Source: an uncultured Bacillota bacterium (lineage in GTDB: Bacteria; Sysuimicrobiota; Sysuimicrobiia; Sysuimicrobiales; Segetimicrobiaceae). From it: 64,000 nucleotides of DNA. Under the pieces are notes generated by a model that was not told the origin of the DNA, did no database searches, and worked only from the letters and a program-made list of their open reading frames with translations. The stretch is taken from positions 32,001 through 96,000 of the forward strand of contig CAWDRG010000018.1 of the NCBI GenBank assembly GCA_963804645.1, read 5' to 3'. This document shows positions 5,767 through 37,200 of the stretch, in pieces. The stretch's first letter is position 1. Each line of letters opens with the position of its first letter. The translations under genes and the position numbers were made by a program.

Positions 5767-6537
5767 TTACAAGCCCGCGTAAAAGGCTTCCATCTCTTCA
5801 ACCGCCACGGTCGCGTCCATCGCCATGCCCAAGCGCTGATACAGTTTCCGCCGCTTGACCACGTCGTCGAGCAGGATCCCCTTGGCGATACGCACGACGT
5901 CGTCCACCACTTCTGCGGGGACGACGACACACCCGTCACCGTCGCATCCGATGATGTCGCCCGGCCGCACCAGCACTCCGCCGCAGCCGATCGGTTCATT
6001 CACCCCGGTGAAAATGACGCGTCCCGGGATGATCGTCCGACCCCGTCCGCGGCAGGCCACGGGAGTCTTCTGCAAGATCAGCTCGTCGGTATCCCGAGCA
6101 TGGCCGTCCGTGAGCACGCCCACCGCGCCCCTGGCGACGAGGTCCAAGGAGTTATTCGAGCCCCAGATGCCGGTCTCGACCCCGTCGGTGGACGTGACGA
6201 CGACGCAACCGGCTTTGACGGCGCCTCCAACTTCATTGCGGCCGTGCTCGGCAAACCAGATGGCATGCGACTTGACCGCGTCTTCGGCGGTGAGCTTCGG
6301 CATGCGCACGTTGGCCGGCAGCGCGCGGACCGTCACCGCCGGGCCCCAGAACCGCAGGCCCTCCCACAGCGGTCGAATGCGCTCGTCCATGAGCGTTAGG
6401 TCCTGCCTGCCCACCGCATCAAGTGCGTCGGTCACGTCGGTAACCCGAAAATGCTTGAACCAGCGCGCGAGTGCATAGGTATCGCTCACGGCTTCGGTCC
6501 ACCCCCATTCGTTTGAATCGACCTGATCCACGTGCAT
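5767..6537 (-). CDS. RraA/HMG-CHA aldolase family protein
   Basis: RVTDVTDALD, WGSNN, TDGHARDTDE, GGVLVRPGDIIGCDGDG. Confidence 0.85.
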   Translation of the reverse strand: MHVDQVDSNEWGWTEAVSDTYALARWFKHFRVTDVTDALDAVGRQDLTLMDERIRPLWEGLRFWGPAVTVRALPANVRMPKLTAEDAVKSHAIWFAEHGRNEVGGAVKAGCVVVTSTDGVETGIWGSNNSLDLVARGAVGVLTDGHARDTDELILQKTPVACRGRGRTIIPGRVIFTGVNEPIGCGGVLVRPGDIIGCDGDGCVVVPAEVVDDVVRIAKGILLDDVVKRRKLYQRLGMAMDATVAVEEMEAFYAGL

Positions 6538-6669: not shown

Positions 6670-7398
6670 CTATCCTCGGGTGAGCTCCGACAACGGAACC
6701 ACGGTGTCGTCCTCCGAAAACCCGGCCTGCTTGAAGAGGGCGCGCCGCTTGACTCGATCGCCGTCCGCCACTTCCCGAGCATACTTCGCGACCTCCTCCG
6801 CGATATCGCGCGGCACGACCACGACCCCGTCGCCGTCCGCCACAATGACGTCCTCCGGCTTCACGAGCGCGCCGCCGCAGTTGATGGCGACCTGTTCAGC
6901 GTTGAACTCGATACGCGCGGGACGAATCGTTTTCTCGATGCGGGCGCAGTACACCCGGCACCCCTGGCGGATCTGTTCGTCGGTGTCCCGGGCGCCCCCG
7001 TTGGTGACCACACCGAACGCGCCCCGCAGGATCCAGCCTAGGGTATTGTTGGACCCGGTGAACCCGACGTGCGTATCCGCCCCGTCGATTACGATGACGT
7101 CGCCCGCGTGGATCTCCATCTGGGGTCCGGCCGCCAGGTCCCTGTACCAGGCGCGGATGAACTCGCGCATTTCATCGGGTGTTCGCGCGGTGACCGGATG
7201 ATTGGTGGGAACCCAGCGAAGCGTGTGGGCAAAGCCGACCAGCCGGTGTTTGAAGCCGACGACGTCACGCGCGAGCGGACGGATCGCTGGATCCATCAGG
7301 CCGATGTCCTGGTACCCCACCATGTCGAGCCCGTCCGTGACATCCGTCACCCGGAGGTCCTGATACAGTGTGAGCAACCGCTGCCGCTCTGCATCCAT
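6670..7398 (-). CDS. RraA/HMG-CHA aldolase family protein (second paralog)
   Basis: RVTDVTDGLD, GSNN, NGGARDTDE, VIVADGDGVVVVP. Confidence 0.85.
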   Translation of the reverse strand: MDAERQRLLTLYQDLRVTDVTDGLDMVGYQDIGLMDPAIRPLARDVVGFKHRLVGFAHTLRWVPTNHPVTARTPDEMREFIRAWYRDLAAGPQMEIHAGDVIVIDGADTHVGFTGSNNTLGWILRGAFGVVTNGGARDTDEQIRQGCRVYCARIEKTIRPARIEFNAEQVAINCGGALVKPEDVIVADGDGVVVVPRDIAEEVAKYAREVADGDRVKRRALFKQAGFSEDDTVVPLSELTRG

Positions 7399-7770: not shown

Positions 7771-7967
7771 ACCGCGCGCGAACCCACGTGGTCCGCGGCC
7801 AGCAGCGTCGCCATCGCACGGTGAGTTGTGAGGAGGATCTGTCGTACATTGCGCGTATAGAACGCGCGAACCAACCGGCACCGACCCGCGAGGGATCGGG
7901 ACCGTACGACCTCGGGCGCTCCTCGCGGCGGCCAGGTCCGAGATGCGCGGTTGGATGGGAGGAACGC

Positions 7968-8660
7968 GTGGACCCCAGAGTCGTACAGTTCGTCGGCGAG
8001 TTGACCCTGACCTTCGCCGCGTTATTTCCGGTGGTCAACCCAATCGGCGACGCCCCGATCTTTCTCGGCCTCACGCGGCGCTACCCGCAGTCGGTGCAGC
8101 GGATGTTGGCGAGGAAGATCGCGGCCTACGGATTTGCCTTGCTCGCAGGGTCGCTCCTGTTTGGCAGCGAGATCCTGAACTTTTTCGGCGTCACCCTGGC
8201 GATTGTGCAGATCGCGGGCGGGCTGGTCCTCGCGAACACGGGATGGCACCTGCTGAATCAGTCGGACGCCGCCCCCGCTGGCACGCAGGCACCGGCGACG
8301 CTCGAGGACGCAATGTCGCACGCGTTCTATCCGCTGACGCTGCCGATCACGGTCGGCCCGGGCTGCATCACCATCGCGGTGGCGATCGGCGCGCACCTGC
8401 GACAGCAGCCGGGCTTCGGGTTTGACCACGGCGTCCCGCTCCGGTTCGTGGCCGCGTTGGTCGGCATGGCGCTGGTGTGCCTCCTGGTGGTCGTGTGCTA
8501 CGGGAACGCCGAATGGCTGGCGCGGACCCTGGGCCGGTCCGGCACGGTGATCCTGGTGCGTCTCTCCGCCTTCATCCTGCTGGCAATCGGAGTGCAGATC
8601 GCGTGGGACGGGCTGAGCACCAACCTCCTCGAACTGCTCTCGCGGGCGCCGGTGCATTGA
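7968..8660 (+). CDS. MarC family membrane protein
   Basis: VVNPIG, IAGGLVL, FYPLTLPITVGPG; GGAGG RBS before GTG. Confidence 0.9.
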   Translation: MDPRVVQFVGELTLTFAALFPVVNPIGDAPIFLGLTRRYPQSVQRMLARKIAAYGFALLAGSLLFGSEILNFFGVTLAIVQIAGGLVLANTGWHLLNQSDAAPAGTQAPATLEDAMSHAFYPLTLPITVGPGCITIAVAIGAHLRQQPGFGFDHGVPLRFVAALVGMALVCLLVVVCYGNAEWLARTLGRSGTVILVRLSAFILLAIGVQIAWDGLSTNLLELLSRAPVH

Positions 8661-8947: not shown

Positions 8948-11900
8948 TCAGTGGAAATCGCGGCTGCGGAGGGTCGTGGGGCCGCGGCGCACGCGGGGCG
9001 TCCACAGCGTCTTGGCGATGATATGGACGACATCGTCCTGCCGCTGGATCGTGCCGGAGACGCCGAGGAACACCGCGGTTTTGGCCAGGGTGACAAATTG
9101 TTCGAACACACGCTCCCAGACGACGAGGTTCACAAAGCCCGTCTCGTCCTCGAGCGTCATAAACGTGACGCCCGACGCGGTGCCGGGCGTCTGCCGGCAG
9201 ATGACGAGCCCCGCGTACCGGACGCGCCGGTTGTTCGGGAGTGTGCCCACGGTGCGCGCGTCGGGCAGCCCGGCGGCCCGGAGTTCTTCCCGCAGGGATT
9301 CCAGCGGATGGCCGCGGGGGCTGTGGCCGGTGGCGCGGTAGTCCCAGGAGATCTCTTCGCCGGGGGTCAGGGGATCGAGCGCGGGGGTGGGCTCTTGGAT
9401 GGCCAGGGAGAGCCGGATGTCCCGCCGGCGTGAGAGGCCGTGGACCTGCCAGAGCGCCGTCCGTCGATCGGCGGCGAACCCGTCGAACGCCCCCGCCTCC
9501 GCGAGCGCAGCAACCGCGCTCCGGTCGAGCCCGGCCCGCCGCACGCAGTCGTCGAGCGACGCGAATGGAACGGCCGTCCGCGCACGGGTGAGGCGCTCGC
9601 CGTCGCCCTCGCCGAGCCCATGGACGTACCGCAGTCCCATGCGCACGGCGAACTCCCCGGCGCGGTCCGCGCGCGGCTCGAGCGTGCAGTCCCACGCACT
9701 GTGCCGGATATCCACGGGCCGGATCGTGACGTCGTGGCGTTTGGCGTCTTCGATGATCGTCGCGGGGCTGTAGAAGCCCATGGGCTGGGCGTTGAGGAGC
9801 GCGCAGGTGAACTCGGCGGGGAAATGGCACTTGAGGTACGCGGTCGCGTAGGCGATGAGGGCAAAGCTGGCCGCGTGCGAGTTGTGCACGACGAGATCGT
9901 TGGCGAGGAAATTGTGGTCGCCCTCCACCTGCAGATCGTACGTGTCCTGGAGGCCTCGCGGCTCGATCGCCGTGACGCGATCCCAGGACACATCGGACGC
10001 GGCCCACGCGCGACACTCCGGAGCCGCCCCCACGCAGTCGCCCGCCCGCAGCGCGCCGAGCGGACGCCAGCCGTCCGGAGTCAGCACGGGATGTTCGGCC
10101 GTCGCCGTGACCGATCGGCCGTGCGCCGTGCGCAGGTGGAAGACCGGGCGGCGTCCGCTCGAGGTGGCGCGGAGCACCCGGCGCACGCGCAGACGCAGGT
10201 CCGCACCGCAGGCCCAGGTGCACCGAAGACGGGCCCGCCCCTGCGCGACGTCCCCGATCGCGATCCGGCTCCCGGTGGCGGCATCGATGACGCGGGTCTC
10301 GGCGGTCACACACTGCGGGAAGCCGTAGTCCCCAAACCCGCGAATTTGATTGAACACCCGCTCGGCGAACTCGGGCGCGATGCCCTTCGCCTGCATGCGC
10401 GACATCAAGAGATCGCGGTGCCGCTCGATGCGGCCCGATCGCCGCCACGCCGCCATGTCCCGCCGCAGCTGATCCGCCTCGCCCGGCGTATAATCGGCGG
10501 CGACGACGGCGAGGCGCATCACCTGTTCCTGAAACAGCGGCACCCCGAGGGTGCTTTCAAGGACGGGAATGAGGGACGGGTGGGGATACTCCACCGGCTC
10601 CTCGCCGTTTCGCCGGCGCAGATAGGGATGCACCATCCCCCCGGTGATCGGCCCCGGGCGGACGATGCTGATCTCGACGACGAGATCGTAGAAATGGCGG
10701 GGGCGCAGACGGGGGAGCATCGCCATCTGCGCGCGGCTTTCGATCTGAAACACCCCGACCGTGTCGGCGCGGCTGGCCATCGCAAACGTCGCCGCGTCAT
10801 CGGAGGGCAGCGTCGCCAAGGACGCCGCGAGGCCCCGGTGCTCCCGCAGGAGCCGAAACGACAGGTCGAGCAGGGTCAGCGCGCCCAGCCCGAGCAGGTC
10901 GACTTTGAACAGCCCGAGGTCCTCGAGATCCTCCTTGTCCCATTGGATGACGGTCCGGCCGTCCATCGTGGCGTTCTCGATCGGGACGATCTCATCCACG
11001 GGAGAATCGCCCAGCAGAAACCCGCCCGGGTGGATCGAGAGGTGGCGGGGAAATCCCAGGATCTCGCGGCTCACCCGGCGCAGATGCTGGTGCGCCGGCA
11101 CCTCGGGGTCCAGTCCGGCCTGCCGCAGCGCCTCGGACGGGATGTCGCCGCCGTAGTCGAGGAGCCGGGCCAGACGGTCGAGGGATGTTTCCGGAATCCC
11201 GAGGACTTTCCCGACGTCCCGCACGGCCGACCGGGGGCGGTAGCGGATCACGTTCGCGACCATCGCCGCGTGCGCGCGCCCGTACCGGTCGTAGACGAAC
11301 TGGATCACCTCCTCGCGGCGGTTGTGCTGGATGTCCAGGTCCACGTCGGGCGGCTCGGCGCGTTCCCGCGAGAGGAAGCGCTCGAACAGGAGGGAGATTT
11401 TCGTGGGGTCGACGGCGGTGATCCCAAGACAGTAGCAGACCGCGGAGTTCGCGGCGGACCCTCGGCCCTGGCAGAGGATGCCTTCCCGGCGGCAGAACTG
11501 CACGATCTCCCACATCGTCAGGAAATAGCCGCCGTAATCCAACTCGTCGATCAACGCCAGTTCCTTGTCGAGCTGCCGCCTGACGTCGGAGGGGACCGCG
11601 CCCTGGTACCGCTCCTCGGCGCCCTCGGCGACCAGCCGGCGGAGCCAGGCGTGGGGGCTCGTGCCCTCGGGGACCCGTTCCTCCGGATAGCGGTACCGCA
11701 GGGTGCCGAGCGAAAACGTGCACCGCGCGGCCACCTCCTCGGTGCGGGCCACGGCAGCCGGGTCGTCGCTGAACAGGGCCTCGAACGCGTACGGCGCCAG
11801 CAGGGCGTGTTCGGCGTTCGGCTTGATCGTCCGCCCCGCGCCGGCGAGCTGGATTCCCTGGCGCAGACAGGCGAGCACGTCCTGGACCGGCCGCCGCGCC

Positions 11901-12469
11901 GGCGTATGATAGAGCACCTCGACCGCGGCGACGAGGGGGAGGGCGTAGCGGGCGGCGCGATCGCGCACCCGTGCCTCCTGCCGGGTCTCGGCGGCTCGCC
12001 GGTGGCGCGCGACGAGCGCGTAGATCGCATCGCCGAACGCGTCCCGCAGGCGCCCGGCGGTCTCGTCCGGCGCCGCCTCGCCGGCCAGCAGGCTGCGGTC
12101 TCCGCCCCACAGCGCGAGGAGGCCGCGCGCGTGCGCGCAGAGTTCGTCCCAGTCGACGGCGCACTCGCCTTTGGGCGACCGCCGCCGCCCCACCGTCAGG
12201 AGCCGGCAGAGGTTCGCGTAGCCGTCGCGGTCCCGTGAGAGGAGGACGAGTGCGGAGCCGCCCGTGATCGTGACCTGCGCGCCGACGATCAGGCGGCACC
12301 CCAGGTCGCGCGCCGCCACGTGGGCGCGCACCATGCCGTGCACGCCGTCGCGGTCCGTGAGCGCGATAGCCTCCAGGCCGTGGCGGTGGGCTTCGCCCAC
12401 CAACTCCTCGGGCTGCGAGGCGCCTTCCAAGAACGAGAACGCGCTTTTGCACCACAGCGGCGCGTACAT
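8948..12469 (-). CDS. dnaE2: Error-prone DNA polymerase III alpha (DnaE2/ImuC) containing an intein
   Basis: PHP start ([11 protein letters not shown]), [35 protein letters not shown]-terminal SRDFH; downstream of imuA-imuB. Confidence 0.95.
9881..10312 (-). mobile_element. Mini-intein (144 aa, no homing endonuclease) in DnaE2
   Basis: [12 protein letters not shown]...TATAEHP (block B TxxH)...[27 protein letters not shown]; interrupts the conserved GFP(E)SHA motif. Confidence 0.95.
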
Positions 12470-12473
12470 CGCC

Positions 12474-13970
12474 TTACTCCACCTGCCCGTGGAGAAACCA
12501 GCGGCGTCGGCGGCGGTCGTGGTAGATCCACAGCACATGCCCGCGCCGGGTCCGGGCGAAGTGGTAGGCGCGGTCCGCTTCGCGCACCCACCAGCCGCCG
12601 GAGACGATGTAGGGGCCGAGCAGTTCGTCCACCGATCCGTACGCGGTGCCGAGGAGCAGCCATCCGTCGTGGCGCGGGTCGGTCGGGGCGGTCCCGATCG
12701 GCTGCGGCCGCTGGAACAGGCGGCGGACGAGCGTGCGCCGCGGGACGGAGACCGGGCGGGGGACGGCGAGCGCGGTGATCGGCTCCCACGCGATCCTGGC
12801 CTCGGGGAGATGTCCGTCCCGCACCCGGACGCGCACCACCGCGTGGTCGCCCAGTTCGGCCCGAAGGCGTGCCAGGGCGCGGTTGCCGGCGGCGAGATCG
12901 CGCGGGTGGACGTTCAAGAATCGGAGCTGCTCATGGGAGGCGGGGACGCGTTCCGCGGTGAGGACGATGTCGGTGATCCCGCCCTCCGCCGTTCGGGCCC
13001 CGGCGCCCGACGCTTCCAGGCGCAGCCGGATCAGGTCCAGGACCTGGACCGGGTCGAGGGTCGGGGCGGCCGGGCGGATCCGTTCCACGTGCCACTCCTG
13101 CCGGTCGAGCTTGATCCGCATCGTGAGCCCCGCGAGCGCTTCTCCCCGGGCCGCGAGGGCGGCCAGCATCGGGTCGAGCCGCTGCTTCAGCAGGAAGAGG
13201 CATCGGATGAGGTCGGATTCCGGGGCGTCGAGCACCAGCTGTTCGCGAAGCGGCTCGAGGTCGGCGGCCGGACGGAGCGGGGCCCGCTCTTGTCCGCTTG
13301 CCGCACGGTGCAGACGGTACGATTCGATGCCGAACCGCTCGAGCAGCCCGCTCTCCGGCAGCTGCACCAGGCCGCGCACGGTCGTCACGCCGAGCTTCTC
13401 GAGCGTGTCCCGGACCTCGGGGTCGATCGCGAGACGGACGAGCGGCACGTCCAGCGCCGCGGCCCGCTCCTCGCGGGGATCGTGAAAGATCCGCACCCCG
13501 GAGGAGACCTGCGCGACGGCGTAGGTGCCGAAGCGCGTGAATCCGATCACCGCGTCGGCGTGAAAGCCCGCGTCTCGGAAATCTCCAAGGACCGCCTCGG
13601 CCCACCGGGTGAGCGAAGGATGCAGCCGGGCAAGCCCGGCGAGGCCGGCCCAGAAGACCCCGGGCTCATCCCCCGGCTCCACGTCGGGGGTAAACCGATG
13701 GAGCCGGACGGTGAGCGATTCTCGTGCCTCAAGGGTCTCCGATGGAGCGACCGCCCCCGCTCTGAGGCCGGGGGCCAGCGCCAGCGCGGCGGCGTACCGC
13801 ATCCCGGGACGCACGCCGGCCCGGCGGGCCTGCTCGTTGACCCTGAGGACCGGACTTTGGGGACGGTCCTCCTCGACGACGGCGGCCGGCGCGCCGCGCC
13901 AGTCGGGATGCGACCGGAGGAGGAGTTGGAGCGGGAACGCCGGGACGCTAACGCAGGCCAGCGGGTCCAC
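12474..13970 (-). CDS. imuB: ImuB, catalytically inactive Y-family polymerase
   Basis: [41 protein letters not shown]; lies between imuA and dnaE2. Confidence 0.9.
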
Positions 13971-14607
13971 GGCACAGTTCCTCAAACGTCCAGGGGCCCC
14001 GGCGTTTGTCCTTGACGACGGACAGCGAGCACCTGAATGTATCCGGCGCCACGCGCTCGCGCCGTGTGCTGCCGCGCAGTGCGATCAATGAGCCGAGCGA
14101 CGGAGCGTCCTCGTCTTTCTGCGTCACGAAGACGATCGCCGTGTGATGCTGCTGCGCCAGTCCCGCGAGGCGCGCGAGCGCGGCCAGCGGCAGCGCGGCG
14201 GAGTCGTGCAGGTCCAGGACCAGCAGGCCGAAGGCCCCCGATCGCGCGAGCCGGTCGGCACTTCGCGCCGCGGCGATCGTATCGGGGACCCGGATGACCA
14301 CGAGCGTCTCGAGGTCCACGCCGCTTTCGGCCACGTCCACGGGGTAGAAGATCCGGTCGGCGGGGGTGATCCACGCGGCGATCTCACCGCGCTGTTGGGC
14401 ATCCAGAATGAGCCGCGTCGCCATCGTCAAACCGGCGGTGTCTCCCAGGCCGGAAAACTCGCTCAACTGGCTCTTGAGTGCGGCAAGCGTCAGCGTGCCG
14501 GGGGAACGGGGTTCGGTGAGATGCGGGAACGATGACAGGTATTTCAGCAGTTCTCGCTCGGGGGCCGGCATAGGGATATCCGTTGTGAGACCTGACCCTC
14601 TTGGCAC
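13948..14607 (-). CDS. imuA: ImuA/RecA-like protein with degenerate Walker A
   Basis: LSEFSG..TAGLT, AESGVDLETL, ARSGAFGLLVLD, SLGSL; first gene of the cassette. Confidence 0.85.
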   Translation of the reverse strand: MPRGSGLTTDIPMPAPERELLKYLSSFPHLTEPRSPGTLTLAALKSQLSEFSGLGDTAGLTMATRLILDAQQRGEIAAWITPADRIFYPVDVAESGVDLETLVVIRVPDTIAAARSADRLARSGAFGLLVLDLHDSAALPLAALARLAGLAQQHHTAIVFVTQKDEDAPSLGSLIALRGSTRRERVAPDTFRCSLSVVKDKRRGPWTFEELCRGPAGLR

Positions 14608-14656: not shown

Positions 14657-14670
14657 CGTACATATGTTCG
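14657..14670 (-). promoter_or_regulatory. LexA (SOS) box overlapping a putative imuA promoter
   Basis: CGAAC-ATAT-GTACG, one mismatch to GAAC-N4-GTTC, inside TTGCAT-N18-TACGAT. Confidence 0.75.
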
Positions 14671-35993: not shown

Positions 35994-36007
35994 CGAACGT
36001 TGGTTCG
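35994..36007. promoter_or_regulatory. LexA (SOS) box upstream of ruvCAB
   Basis: CGAAC-GTTG-GTTCG, perfect GAAC-N4-GTTC, about 55 bp before the ruvC ATG. Confidence 0.7.
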
Positions 36008-36060
36008 TGGGTGCGCCGCACCGGCGCAGCCGTGATCCACGCCGACTCGGAGCCGTGTGC

Positions 36061-36571
36061 ATGCGCATTCTTGGAATCGATCCGGGACTCTATCTGACCG
36101 GGTACGGGATCGTCGAGACGACAGGGCGCGGGATCGCCCTCGTGGAAGCCGGGTTGATCCGCACCGAACGTCCGGGCGTCGCTGCCGGATCGGCTCCACG
36201 AGCTGTACGCCGGCGTCCGAGACGTGCTGGCCGACGGCCGCCCGACCGCGATCGCCCTCGAGGACGTCTTTGTCCACCCCGCATTTCCCAGAGCGGCTAT
36301 CATCATGGGGCACGTGTGCGGGGTCATCGGTCTGAGCGCCGCGCAGGCGCGCGTGCCCGTGGACACGATCCCGCCCGCGGCCGTGAAGCGCGCGATGGTG
36401 GCGTTCGGGCAGGCCGGCAAGCGCCAGGTGCAGCGCATGGTCCGCGTGCTGCTGGACCTCGACGACGAGCCAAGCTCGCACGTGGCCGATGCGCTGGCGC
36501 TCGCGCTCGTCGCGGCTTCGCGCCGGGGCGCCGTGCTGGGCGCCGCGGCGGGCGTCCGAGGGTCCGCGTGA
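36061..36571 (+). CDS. ruvC: Holliday junction resolvase RuvC; single-base frameshift near 36178, probably a sequence error
   Basis: MRILGIDPG..TGYG in one frame; ALEDVF..VKRAMV..HVADALALA in the next. Confidence 0.9.
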
Positions 36572-37200
36572 TCGCGTTTCTGCGCGGCCCGATCGTGCGG
36601 CGCACCGACGAGTTCCTGGTCATCGAATGCGGGGGCGTCGGGTATGAAGTGCACCTCCCCGGATTCCTTCGCGACCTCCTGCGCAGCGATCCTCAGCACA
36701 TCGGCGAGACGGCCGAGCTGCACGTGTCGTACCACGTGTCCGCGAATCAGCCGCGCCCGCTGCTGGTGGGGTTTCTGCGTGAGATCGAGCAGGAATTTTT
36801 CGAGCGGTTCATCACGGTCGACGGGTTGGGCCCCACGAAGGCGATGAAGGCGATCGTGCATCCGGTCGAACAAGTCGCGGACGCGATCGAGCGCAAAGAC
36901 GTGGCGTTTCTCCGCCGGCTCCCGGGGATCGGCGGGCGGACCGCCGAGAAGATCGTCGCGTCGCTTAACGGGAAGATGGGCAAGTACGCGCTGCTGCGCA
37001 CCGAAGCCGCGGTCCCGGCCGAGGCGACCGCCGAGGACTTCCGCGAGGAGGTGCTCGAGGTGCTCACCGGACAGCTCGGGCACCGCAGCACCGAAGCCAA
37101 GCGCATGGTCGACGAGGCGCTGCGGCGCAACCCCGCGATCGCGTCGGCGGAGGACCTGTTCCAAGAAGTGTACCGTGCGGAGCGGGGGGCCCCGGCGTGA
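36568..37200 (+). CDS. ruvA: Holliday junction branch migration protein RuvA
   Basis: [30 protein letters not shown]. Confidence 0.92.

Follow-up and report, generated by a model that had tools for sequence, protein, structure and literature searches.

Why should the gene for an error-prone DNA polymerase carry, within a conserved motif of its finger domain, an in-frame insertion of 144 codons? The question is raised by a 64,000-nucleotide stretch of contig CAWDRG010000018.1 (positions 32,001-96,000; called the window below, with all feature positions counted from its start), in which a dnaE2 gene is interrupted by an intein. A preliminary description of the sequence had identified the insertion as a class 1 mini-intein with all splicing residues and no endonuclease, and had proposed that such an element could act as a gate on mutagenesis. 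The identification is borne out by the codons, by family models and by an AlphaFold2 model. The proposed gate gained no specific support, the additional cysteines being mostly unconserved and the allele widespread in public data. We consider it likely that the insertion is the remnant of a selfish element: a class 1 mini-intein, late in its homing cycle, that splices in the ordinary autocatalytic manner and belongs to a lineage that is widespread and specific to DnaE2.

The intein occupies positions 9881..10312 on the minus strand, which translate without a stop into 144 residues, in frame between YGFPQ and SHAASFAL, and family models, AlphaFold2 and Foldseek agree that it consists of the HINT splicing domain only. 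The codons of the splicing motifs were confirmed: Cys1, the block A nucleophile (TGT at 10310..10312, minus strand); the block B sequence TAEH, residues 71-74 from Thr71 to His74 (10091..10102, minus strand); Asp126, His133 and the terminal His143-Asn144 of blocks F and G (9881..9937, minus strand); and the serine at position +1. Cys1 is invariant in 120/120 relatives, and among 57 other mini-inteins Thr71 is found in 55, Asp126 in 56, and His74, His133, His143 and Asn144 in all 57. Scores on intein family models are far above chance, with 59.6 bits for Pfam Intein_splicing (cutoff 35.8), 33.5 for TIGR01445 (cutoff 24.5) and 30.7 for TIGR01443 (cutoff 15.6), the latter two being models of the intein ends; a Pfam scan of the intein matched no endonuclease family, neither PF14528 nor any other nuclease. 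An alignment of 15 mini-inteins served as input to AlphaFold2, and the resulting model has a predicted local distance difference test (pLDDT) value of 95.8 throughout. Its best Foldseek match is the splicing domain of the Mycobacterium tuberculosis (Mtu) RecA intein (3ifj; template modelling (TM) scores 0.91/0.94, root mean square deviation 1.4 A, 36% identity), and the remaining top matches are likewise inteins. The class 1 features are thus all present, that is, Cys1, a block B TxxH, the block F Asp, a C-terminal HN followed by Ser+1, and a predicted HINT fold. An intein-free relative (P0274, 83% identical in the N-extein) runs through the site uninterrupted, so that the insertion is exact. 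We conclude that the element interrupting DnaE2 is a genuine and well-formed class 1 mini-intein, and from its intact residues it is predicted to splice. The intein is also a long-standing resident of its host, because its GC content (0.731, and 0.861 at third codon positions) resembles that of the host gene (0.705 and 0.89); a recent foreign import was rejected on the same grounds.

The host protein scores 1318.8 bits on NF004225, the model for error-prone DNA polymerase (cutoff 939), and 634 bits on the replicative equivalog NF004226, under the cutoff of 1002. Its exteins together measure about 1029 residues, as in DnaE2 relatives, and Pfam recognizes PHP, polymerase core, finger, HhH and OB domains in addition to Intein_splicing. 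Several close matches are named 'DNA polymerase III subunit alpha' by NCBI, as would be expected if the host were instead the replicative paralog DnaE1 and the insertion a routine replicative-polymerase intein. Such a host is extremely unlikely in view of these scores, the extein length and the presence of imuA-like and imuB-like genes directly upstream. Furthermore, where related inteins reside in true DnaE1, the scores of the host are reversed: 11 of 11 such hosts tested, all with the insertion motif GFNK, were best on replicative Pol III alpha models and fell under the error-prone cutoff.

The dnaE2 gene (also imuC) extends over 8948..12469 on the minus strand, from Met24 of its longest open reading frame to a TGA stop, both codons having been checked. 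The start is probably this Met24, at 12469 and five bases past the stop of the upstream gene, because the match to the family hidden Markov model begins at residue 23-24 and a database protein 99% identical to the product (P0003) is 1173 residues long. The longest frame (8948..12538, minus strand) would encode 1196 residues, and its extra 23 codons (12469..12538, minus strand) overlap the end of the imuB-like gene; since P0003 starts at Met24, the longer reading is probably an over-extension. The N-extein (10313..12469, minus strand) contains the PHP, polymerase core and finger domains (PF02811, PF07733 and PF17657), with residues 23-742 corresponding to profile positions 4-738, and ends in ...YGFPQ. 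The C-extein (8948..9880, minus strand, stop included) begins with Ser+1 (SHAASFAL...) and carries the HhH and OB domains (PF14579 and PF01336).

How the element came to its present form can be read from its relatives. Inteins at the same site (n=120, the window's included) range from 137 to 443 residues, with 59 of at most 160, 12 of 161-379 and 49 of at least 380, and with a mode at 423. The LAGLIDADG family PF14528 is annotated for many of the matching protein clusters, an annotation that is not broken down by intein size. Alignment with the full-length or longer relatives P0004, P0006, P0012 and P0273 shows that about 280 residues of homing-endonuclease region, lying between ...AAARRL and ...SDVYWDRV, are replaced in the window by the seven-residue linker PECRAWA (10001..10021, minus strand). 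A similar short linker is found in L001, the nearest genome relative (CAWBBU010000012.1; 1697..3836 and 6001..6441), whose host proteins are 90-95% identical to those of the window. In a tree of 260 splicing domains (FastTree, LG+gamma, midpoint root, 144 aligned columns), the window intein and its 99% copy in P0003 are sister to 17 inteins (support 0.91), and because all of these clade-mates are 353-443 residues long, the window intein is a recent derivative that lost its endonuclease. Hosts that are about 82-83% identical in the N-extein carry an intein of 429 residues (P0006), a partly deleted one of 219 residues (P0273) or none (P0274), next to the 144 residues in the window. Full, half-deleted, mini and empty alleles in such close hosts make up a classic homing cycle, in which an intein invades, its endonuclease decays and the element is finally lost. 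A Fitch count gives 26 changes between mini and long forms among 131 inteins, to be taken as a rough sign of repeated endonuclease loss on a weak tree. The element had been described as kept without homing, and it is indeed devoid of an endonuclease. No new function is needed to explain this state, because the homing cycle accounts for every allele stage, including the sister alleles that keep their LAGLIDADG endonucleases.

Inteins of this kind are sporadic in DnaE2 and yet far from rare. When the intein was used as query against 5.8 billion protein clusters, with hosts limited to 657-2093 residues, 228 matches were obtained at E<=0.001. Among the best 120 of these, 119 are DnaE-type polymerases with the intein at GFP(E/Q)-C...HN-SH (hyphens mark the splice junctions) and one is a DnaB helicase; all three of the GFPE-C representatives tested were positive on NF004225. 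A scan of 185,579 species, one genome each, for two C-terminal motifs taken from the alignment of 15 mini-inteins gave 317 pattern matches, and 289 of these held up in a tblastn check. The intein lies at the same site in all 80 of the loci that were kept (GFPE in 73, GFPQ in 7). All 80 are from metagenome-assembled genomes, with labels that include Rokubacteria/Methylomirabilota, Steroidobacteraceae and other Gammaproteobacteria, Myxococcales/Kofleriaceae, Acidobacteriota, Limnocylindria, Verrucomicrobiia and Phycisphaeraceae; one cultured carrier, Sulfurifustis variabilis (P0108), whose intein has 422 residues, is among the protein matches listed. Among relatives of the N-extein, the nearest 120 (70-100% identity) divide into 10 that carry an intein at the site and 110 that lack one, but both this figure and the 289 stretches among 185,579 species are biased as estimates of how frequent DnaE2 inteins are. 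How rare DnaE2 inteins are had been left as a question in the preliminary description, and these cluster matches, kept loci and confirmed stretches show that the element is not rare. Many proteins of this kind are already deposited in databases under the automatic name 'error-prone DNA polymerase'. As a separate observation, P0123 (5631 residues, 10 matched stretches) and other top representatives contain several related inteins within one very long protein.

The closest relatives outside DnaE2 point to the probable source. An exhaustive HMMER search with the intein against 1.84 billion representatives returned 5582 proteins at E<=0.001, and the top 150 comprise 18 at the DnaE2 site, 28 at GFN(K/R)-C...HN-SH, 2 other DnaE-like proteins and 102 other hosts; the non-DnaE top hosts that were tested are all DnaB helicases (19/19). 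The GFN(K/R)-SH inteins reside in the same host superfamily, at an insertion point that is homologous residue for residue. They share about 40-50% identity with the query intein, and the DnaE2-site inteins form a single clade (n=131, support 0.712) that nests with 11 and then with 21 DnaE1-site inteins (supports 0.947 and 0.879). This pattern tentatively suggests that an intein of DnaE1 moved once into the corresponding motif of its paralog DnaE2. The DnaE1-site inteins differ in residing in an essential replicase rather than in an SOS translesion paralog, in being mostly large among those compared (hosts of 1428-1805 residues), and in having mostly Leu at position 35 (13/25). The presence of inteins near this motif in replicative DnaE, and a link between them and the present one, had both been anticipated, and they are upheld by the homologous GFN(K/R)-SH site, by the 28 proteins just mentioned and by the nesting in the tree. 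In the survey by Novikova et al. 2016 (PMC4760082), the portion on PolIII-alpha ranks it among the major intein hosts of bacteria and counts 116 inteins (COG0587), with several insertion points within a 75-residue stretch of the fingers; in that portion the host is treated as the replicase, without separation of DnaE2 from DnaE1.

Comparison with better known inteins places the element further. The Mtu RecA intein (PI-MtuI) shares the class 1 HINT fold, is the best structural match and also interrupts a protein of the SOS pathway; it differs in host protein and site, and the solved structures that were matched are of the splicing domain only. The natural Mtu RecA intein carries an endonuclease domain. 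According to the part of PMC11377839 that deals with this intein, its splicing in the native host is enhanced when DNA is damaged. The best sequence match among solved structures is the Synechocystis DnaB mini-intein (1mi8, E 2.3e-21), which is of similar size, resides in another host and site, and has Ile aligned to Cys35 of the window intein. The Ssp and Npu split DnaE inteins occupy the same polymerase superfamily and the same finger region, as indicated in the polymerase portion of PMC4760082, and have the HINT fold (4kl5, TM 0.80), but they are split, splice in trans, interrupt DnaE1 at another insertion point and are only 17-21% identical. Redox- and stress-responsive inteins, in which a non-catalytic cysteine pairs with a catalytic one, supply the model for a gate. 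The mycobacterial DnaB intein has been reported as an oxidative-stress sensor; that of M. smegmatis (6bs8, TM 0.70) belongs to class 3, unlike the class 1 intein of the window.

The window intein does contain the five cysteines first noted, at positions 1, 31, 35, 93 and 100, with CTWAC spanning residues 31-35. The expectation that the non-catalytic ones would be conserved fails for three of them and is satisfied by one. Of the 120 DnaE2-site inteins, only those of the window and P0003 have Cys31, 6 have Cys93 and 5 have Cys100 (P0003 has Arg at position 100), whereas Cys35 (codon at 10208..10210, minus strand) is as invariant as Cys1. Position 35 is also Cys, in the raw counts, at 79 of the 80 genome loci. 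CTWAC was rejected as a redox motif, Cys31 being confined to the window and its 99% copy. Outside the DnaE2-intein clade position 35 is typically hydrophobic, the commonest residues being Leu (13), Cys (6) and Val (3) in 25 DnaE1-site inteins, and Leu (46), Val (10), Ile (8) and Met (5) in other hosts. Because this position is hydrophobic in related inteins and falls within a beta strand of the AlphaFold2 model, the simplest way to read Cys35 is as a lineage-specific substitution in the protein core.

The residues that flank the intein, and the rates at which it and its host have diverged, bear on whether splicing is maintained. Gln in place of the usual Glu at position -1 is real, but it belongs to the host lineage, since the intein-free P0274 and P0275 also have it; it was accordingly rejected as an adaptation to the intein. 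Ser+1 is found in every intein-bearing allele (119/119 and 80/80), and in intein-free relatives (n=110) the residue is Ser in 96 and Ala in 14. Retention of Ser+1 fits selection for splicing competence, as far as can be judged from sequences that are related and not independent. The 14 intein-free alleles of the form GFP(E/Q)-AH, P0275 included, are an observation in their own right; their Ala at the would-be +1 could not support splicing, and they might be immune to invasion or have been shaped by past intein loss. Selection was estimated by the Nei-Gojobori method from one pair, the window and L001. Identity, nonsynonymous divergence (dN) and the ratio of nonsynonymous to synonymous divergence (dN/dS) are 94.7%, 0.028 and 0.13 for the N-extein, 91.3%, 0.049 and 0.17 for the C-extein, and 79.2%, 0.128 and 0.40 for the intein, so that dN of the intein exceeds that of its host by a factor of 2.6-4.6. 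The intein is under relaxed but purifying selection, as for an element that must still splice, and the excess over the host does not suggest a finely tuned regulator.

The genes upstream have the order and common orientation of an imuA-imuB-dnaE2 cassette, with the imuA-like and imuB-like scores far under the family cutoffs. The imuB-like gene (12474..13985, minus strand; a frame of 503 residues with weak Y-family similarity) lies directly upstream of dnaE2 and scores 23-32 bits on DNA polymerase IV models, far under their cutoffs; the imuA-like gene (13948..14607, minus strand; 219 residues, weak ImuA/RecA similarity) scores 28.4 bits on NF033429 (cutoff 150). The order imuA-like, imuB-like, dnaE2 is kept in L001, and identity to the window proteins there is 92% for the ImuB-like and 90% for the ImuA-like product. 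A tblastn search with the window proteins found the ImuB-like one at 24 and the ImuA-like one at 2 of the 80 loci at E<1e-5, counts that are uninformative given divergent proteins and many short flanks. The imuA-like gene is preceded by a promoter region in which a pattern match at 14657..14670 (minus strand) marks a candidate LexA operator, CGAACATATGTACG, resembling the Gram-positive type of LexA box (Cheo-box-like). The match is kept in L001, with 24 of 24 bases around the box identical while sequence farther upstream diverges. An enrichment of LexA boxes was rejected, the window having 3 against 4.45 expected from shuffled sequence; because the box count is not above chance, the case for the operator is made by its position and its conservation in L001. 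SOS control of the cassette is plausible on this evidence.

Other features of the window lie outside the cassette. A perfect LexA/Cheo-box-like palindrome, CGAACGTTGGTTCG, is found at 35994..36007, at the start of an open reading frame at 36007..37200 (plus strand), and may mark another SOS-regulated gene. Two adjacent paralogs of the RraA / 4-carboxy-4-hydroxy-2-oxoadipate aldolase-like family, with scores below family cutoffs, are encoded at 5767..6537 and 6670..7398 (both minus strand), and a MarC/NAAT-family membrane transporter (TIGR00427, 123.5 bits, cutoff 99.2) is encoded at 7788..8660 (plus strand), convergent with the end of dnaE2.

The history and operation of the element can be modeled as follows. 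A LAGLIDADG-bearing intein would have homed into the DnaE2 finger motif GFP(E/Q)-SH, probably from the homologous GFNK-SH site of the replicative DnaE1, and would then have spread among soil and groundwater bacteria; the window lineage would later have shed some 280 residues of endonuclease, leaving the seven-residue linker. Transcription and translation of the SOS-type cassette would yield a precursor of DnaE2 with 144 extra residues in its fingers. Cys1, helped by Thr71 and His74, would undergo the N-S acyl shift, Ser+1 would attack the resulting thioester, and Asn144 would cyclize with the participation of His143 and Asp126, so that the exteins are joined and GFPQSHA is restored in the fingers. 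The intein would persist since an imprecise deletion within this motif would destroy the polymerase, and not through any regulatory role. What the analysis shows directly is the anatomy of the sequence, its fold, family, distribution, stages of endonuclease decay and mode of selection; that splicing occurs and is constitutive, and that the transfer ran from DnaE1 to DnaE2, are inferences.

Several considerations weigh against this account and in part favor its main competitor, in which the intein would leave DnaE2 an inactive precursor until a redox shift, metals, single-stranded DNA, DNA damage or a similar cue triggered splicing, Cys35 would bond to Cys1 through a disulfide or bind a metal together with it, and the whole would act as a post-translational checkpoint on SOS mutagenesis. 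Constitutive splicing is an assumption of the account, and conditional splicing is documented for the M. tuberculosis RecA intein, the closest structural relative, which splices more upon damage in its host (PMC11377839, in the part on that intein), so that regulation as a by-product is possible. Some variation would perhaps be expected of a neutral residue in the core, and yet Cys35 is found in 120/120 DnaE2-site inteins, as well as in 15/15 representatives, where related inteins have Leu, Val or Ile. The dN/dS values come from a single pair, the support for monophyly of the DnaE2 inteins (0.712) is modest, and the direction from DnaE1 to DnaE2 is tentative because it derives from a midpoint-rooted FastTree tree on 144 columns. 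A conditional gate would also be favored by the conserved Cheo-box-like site upstream of the operon and by the position of the insertion in a conserved finger motif, which probably leaves the precursor inactive. We nevertheless regard such a gate as unlikely. C31, C93 and C100 are not conserved, L001 making do with an intein of 147 residues (79% identical) whose two cysteines are C1 and C35; Cys35 itself is more simply explained as a core substitute; the intein has accumulated nonsynonymous changes well beyond its host; and the sporadic distribution (10/120 nearest relatives), with endonuclease-bearing and intein-free sisters, is typical of a mobile parasite. The more specific proposal, that Cys35 was fixed throughout the lineage to trap Cys1 in a disulfide or metal site and thereby limits DnaE2 maturation to certain redox or metal conditions, appears very unlikely.

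A further competitor supposes that splicing has been lost and that this copy of dnaE2 is decaying, non-functional or active in spite of an insertion that stays in the protein. Degeneration can occur in mini-inteins at a late point of the homing cycle, and Gln at -1 together with a divergent N-terminus (CVTAE in place of the usual CVVGE) could slow the first step. Against this, all catalytic residues are intact in a confidently modeled structure, the exteins are under strong purifying selection and the intein itself has a dN/dS below 1, Ser+1 is kept in spite of the Ala tolerated by 14 of the 110 intein-free relatives, and Gln at -1 is shared with 7/80 other intein-bearing loci. A dead intein is thus highly improbable, and an autocatalytically splicing remnant of a selfish element is the reading that we prefer.

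The literature searched yielded no paper describing an intein in an error-prone DnaE2. Matches for DnaE2 together with intein concerned, in the portions retrieved, the nomenclature of cyanobacterial split dnaE or methods for excising inteins. The PMC4760082 supplement has no 'dnaE2' or 'error-prone' entry in the files searched, one file lying outside the search, and polymerase surveys, as described in parts of Timinskas et al. 2014 (PMC3919608) and of their 2019 paper (PMC6511836), excised inteins before analysis. The intein lineage in DnaE2 is widespread, already deposited and little discussed. Because DnaE2 is not singled out as an intein host in the papers searched and surveys excise inteins, a census or short note could be useful to those who study inteins and translesion synthesis.

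The locus offers a tidy example of the homing cycle, in that close relatives of the host carry alleles of every stage from full to half-deleted, mini and empty; it is probably also an instance of an intein that jumped between paralogous polymerases, from DnaE1 to DnaE2, by way of a shared motif. If splicing were conditional, a control at the protein level would be added to stress-induced mutagenesis, a possibility for which the invariant Cys35 is the sole specific pointer. Were the Cys35 trap real, the intein family would act in soil bacteria as a natural brake, applied after translation, on mutagenesis by ImuABC.

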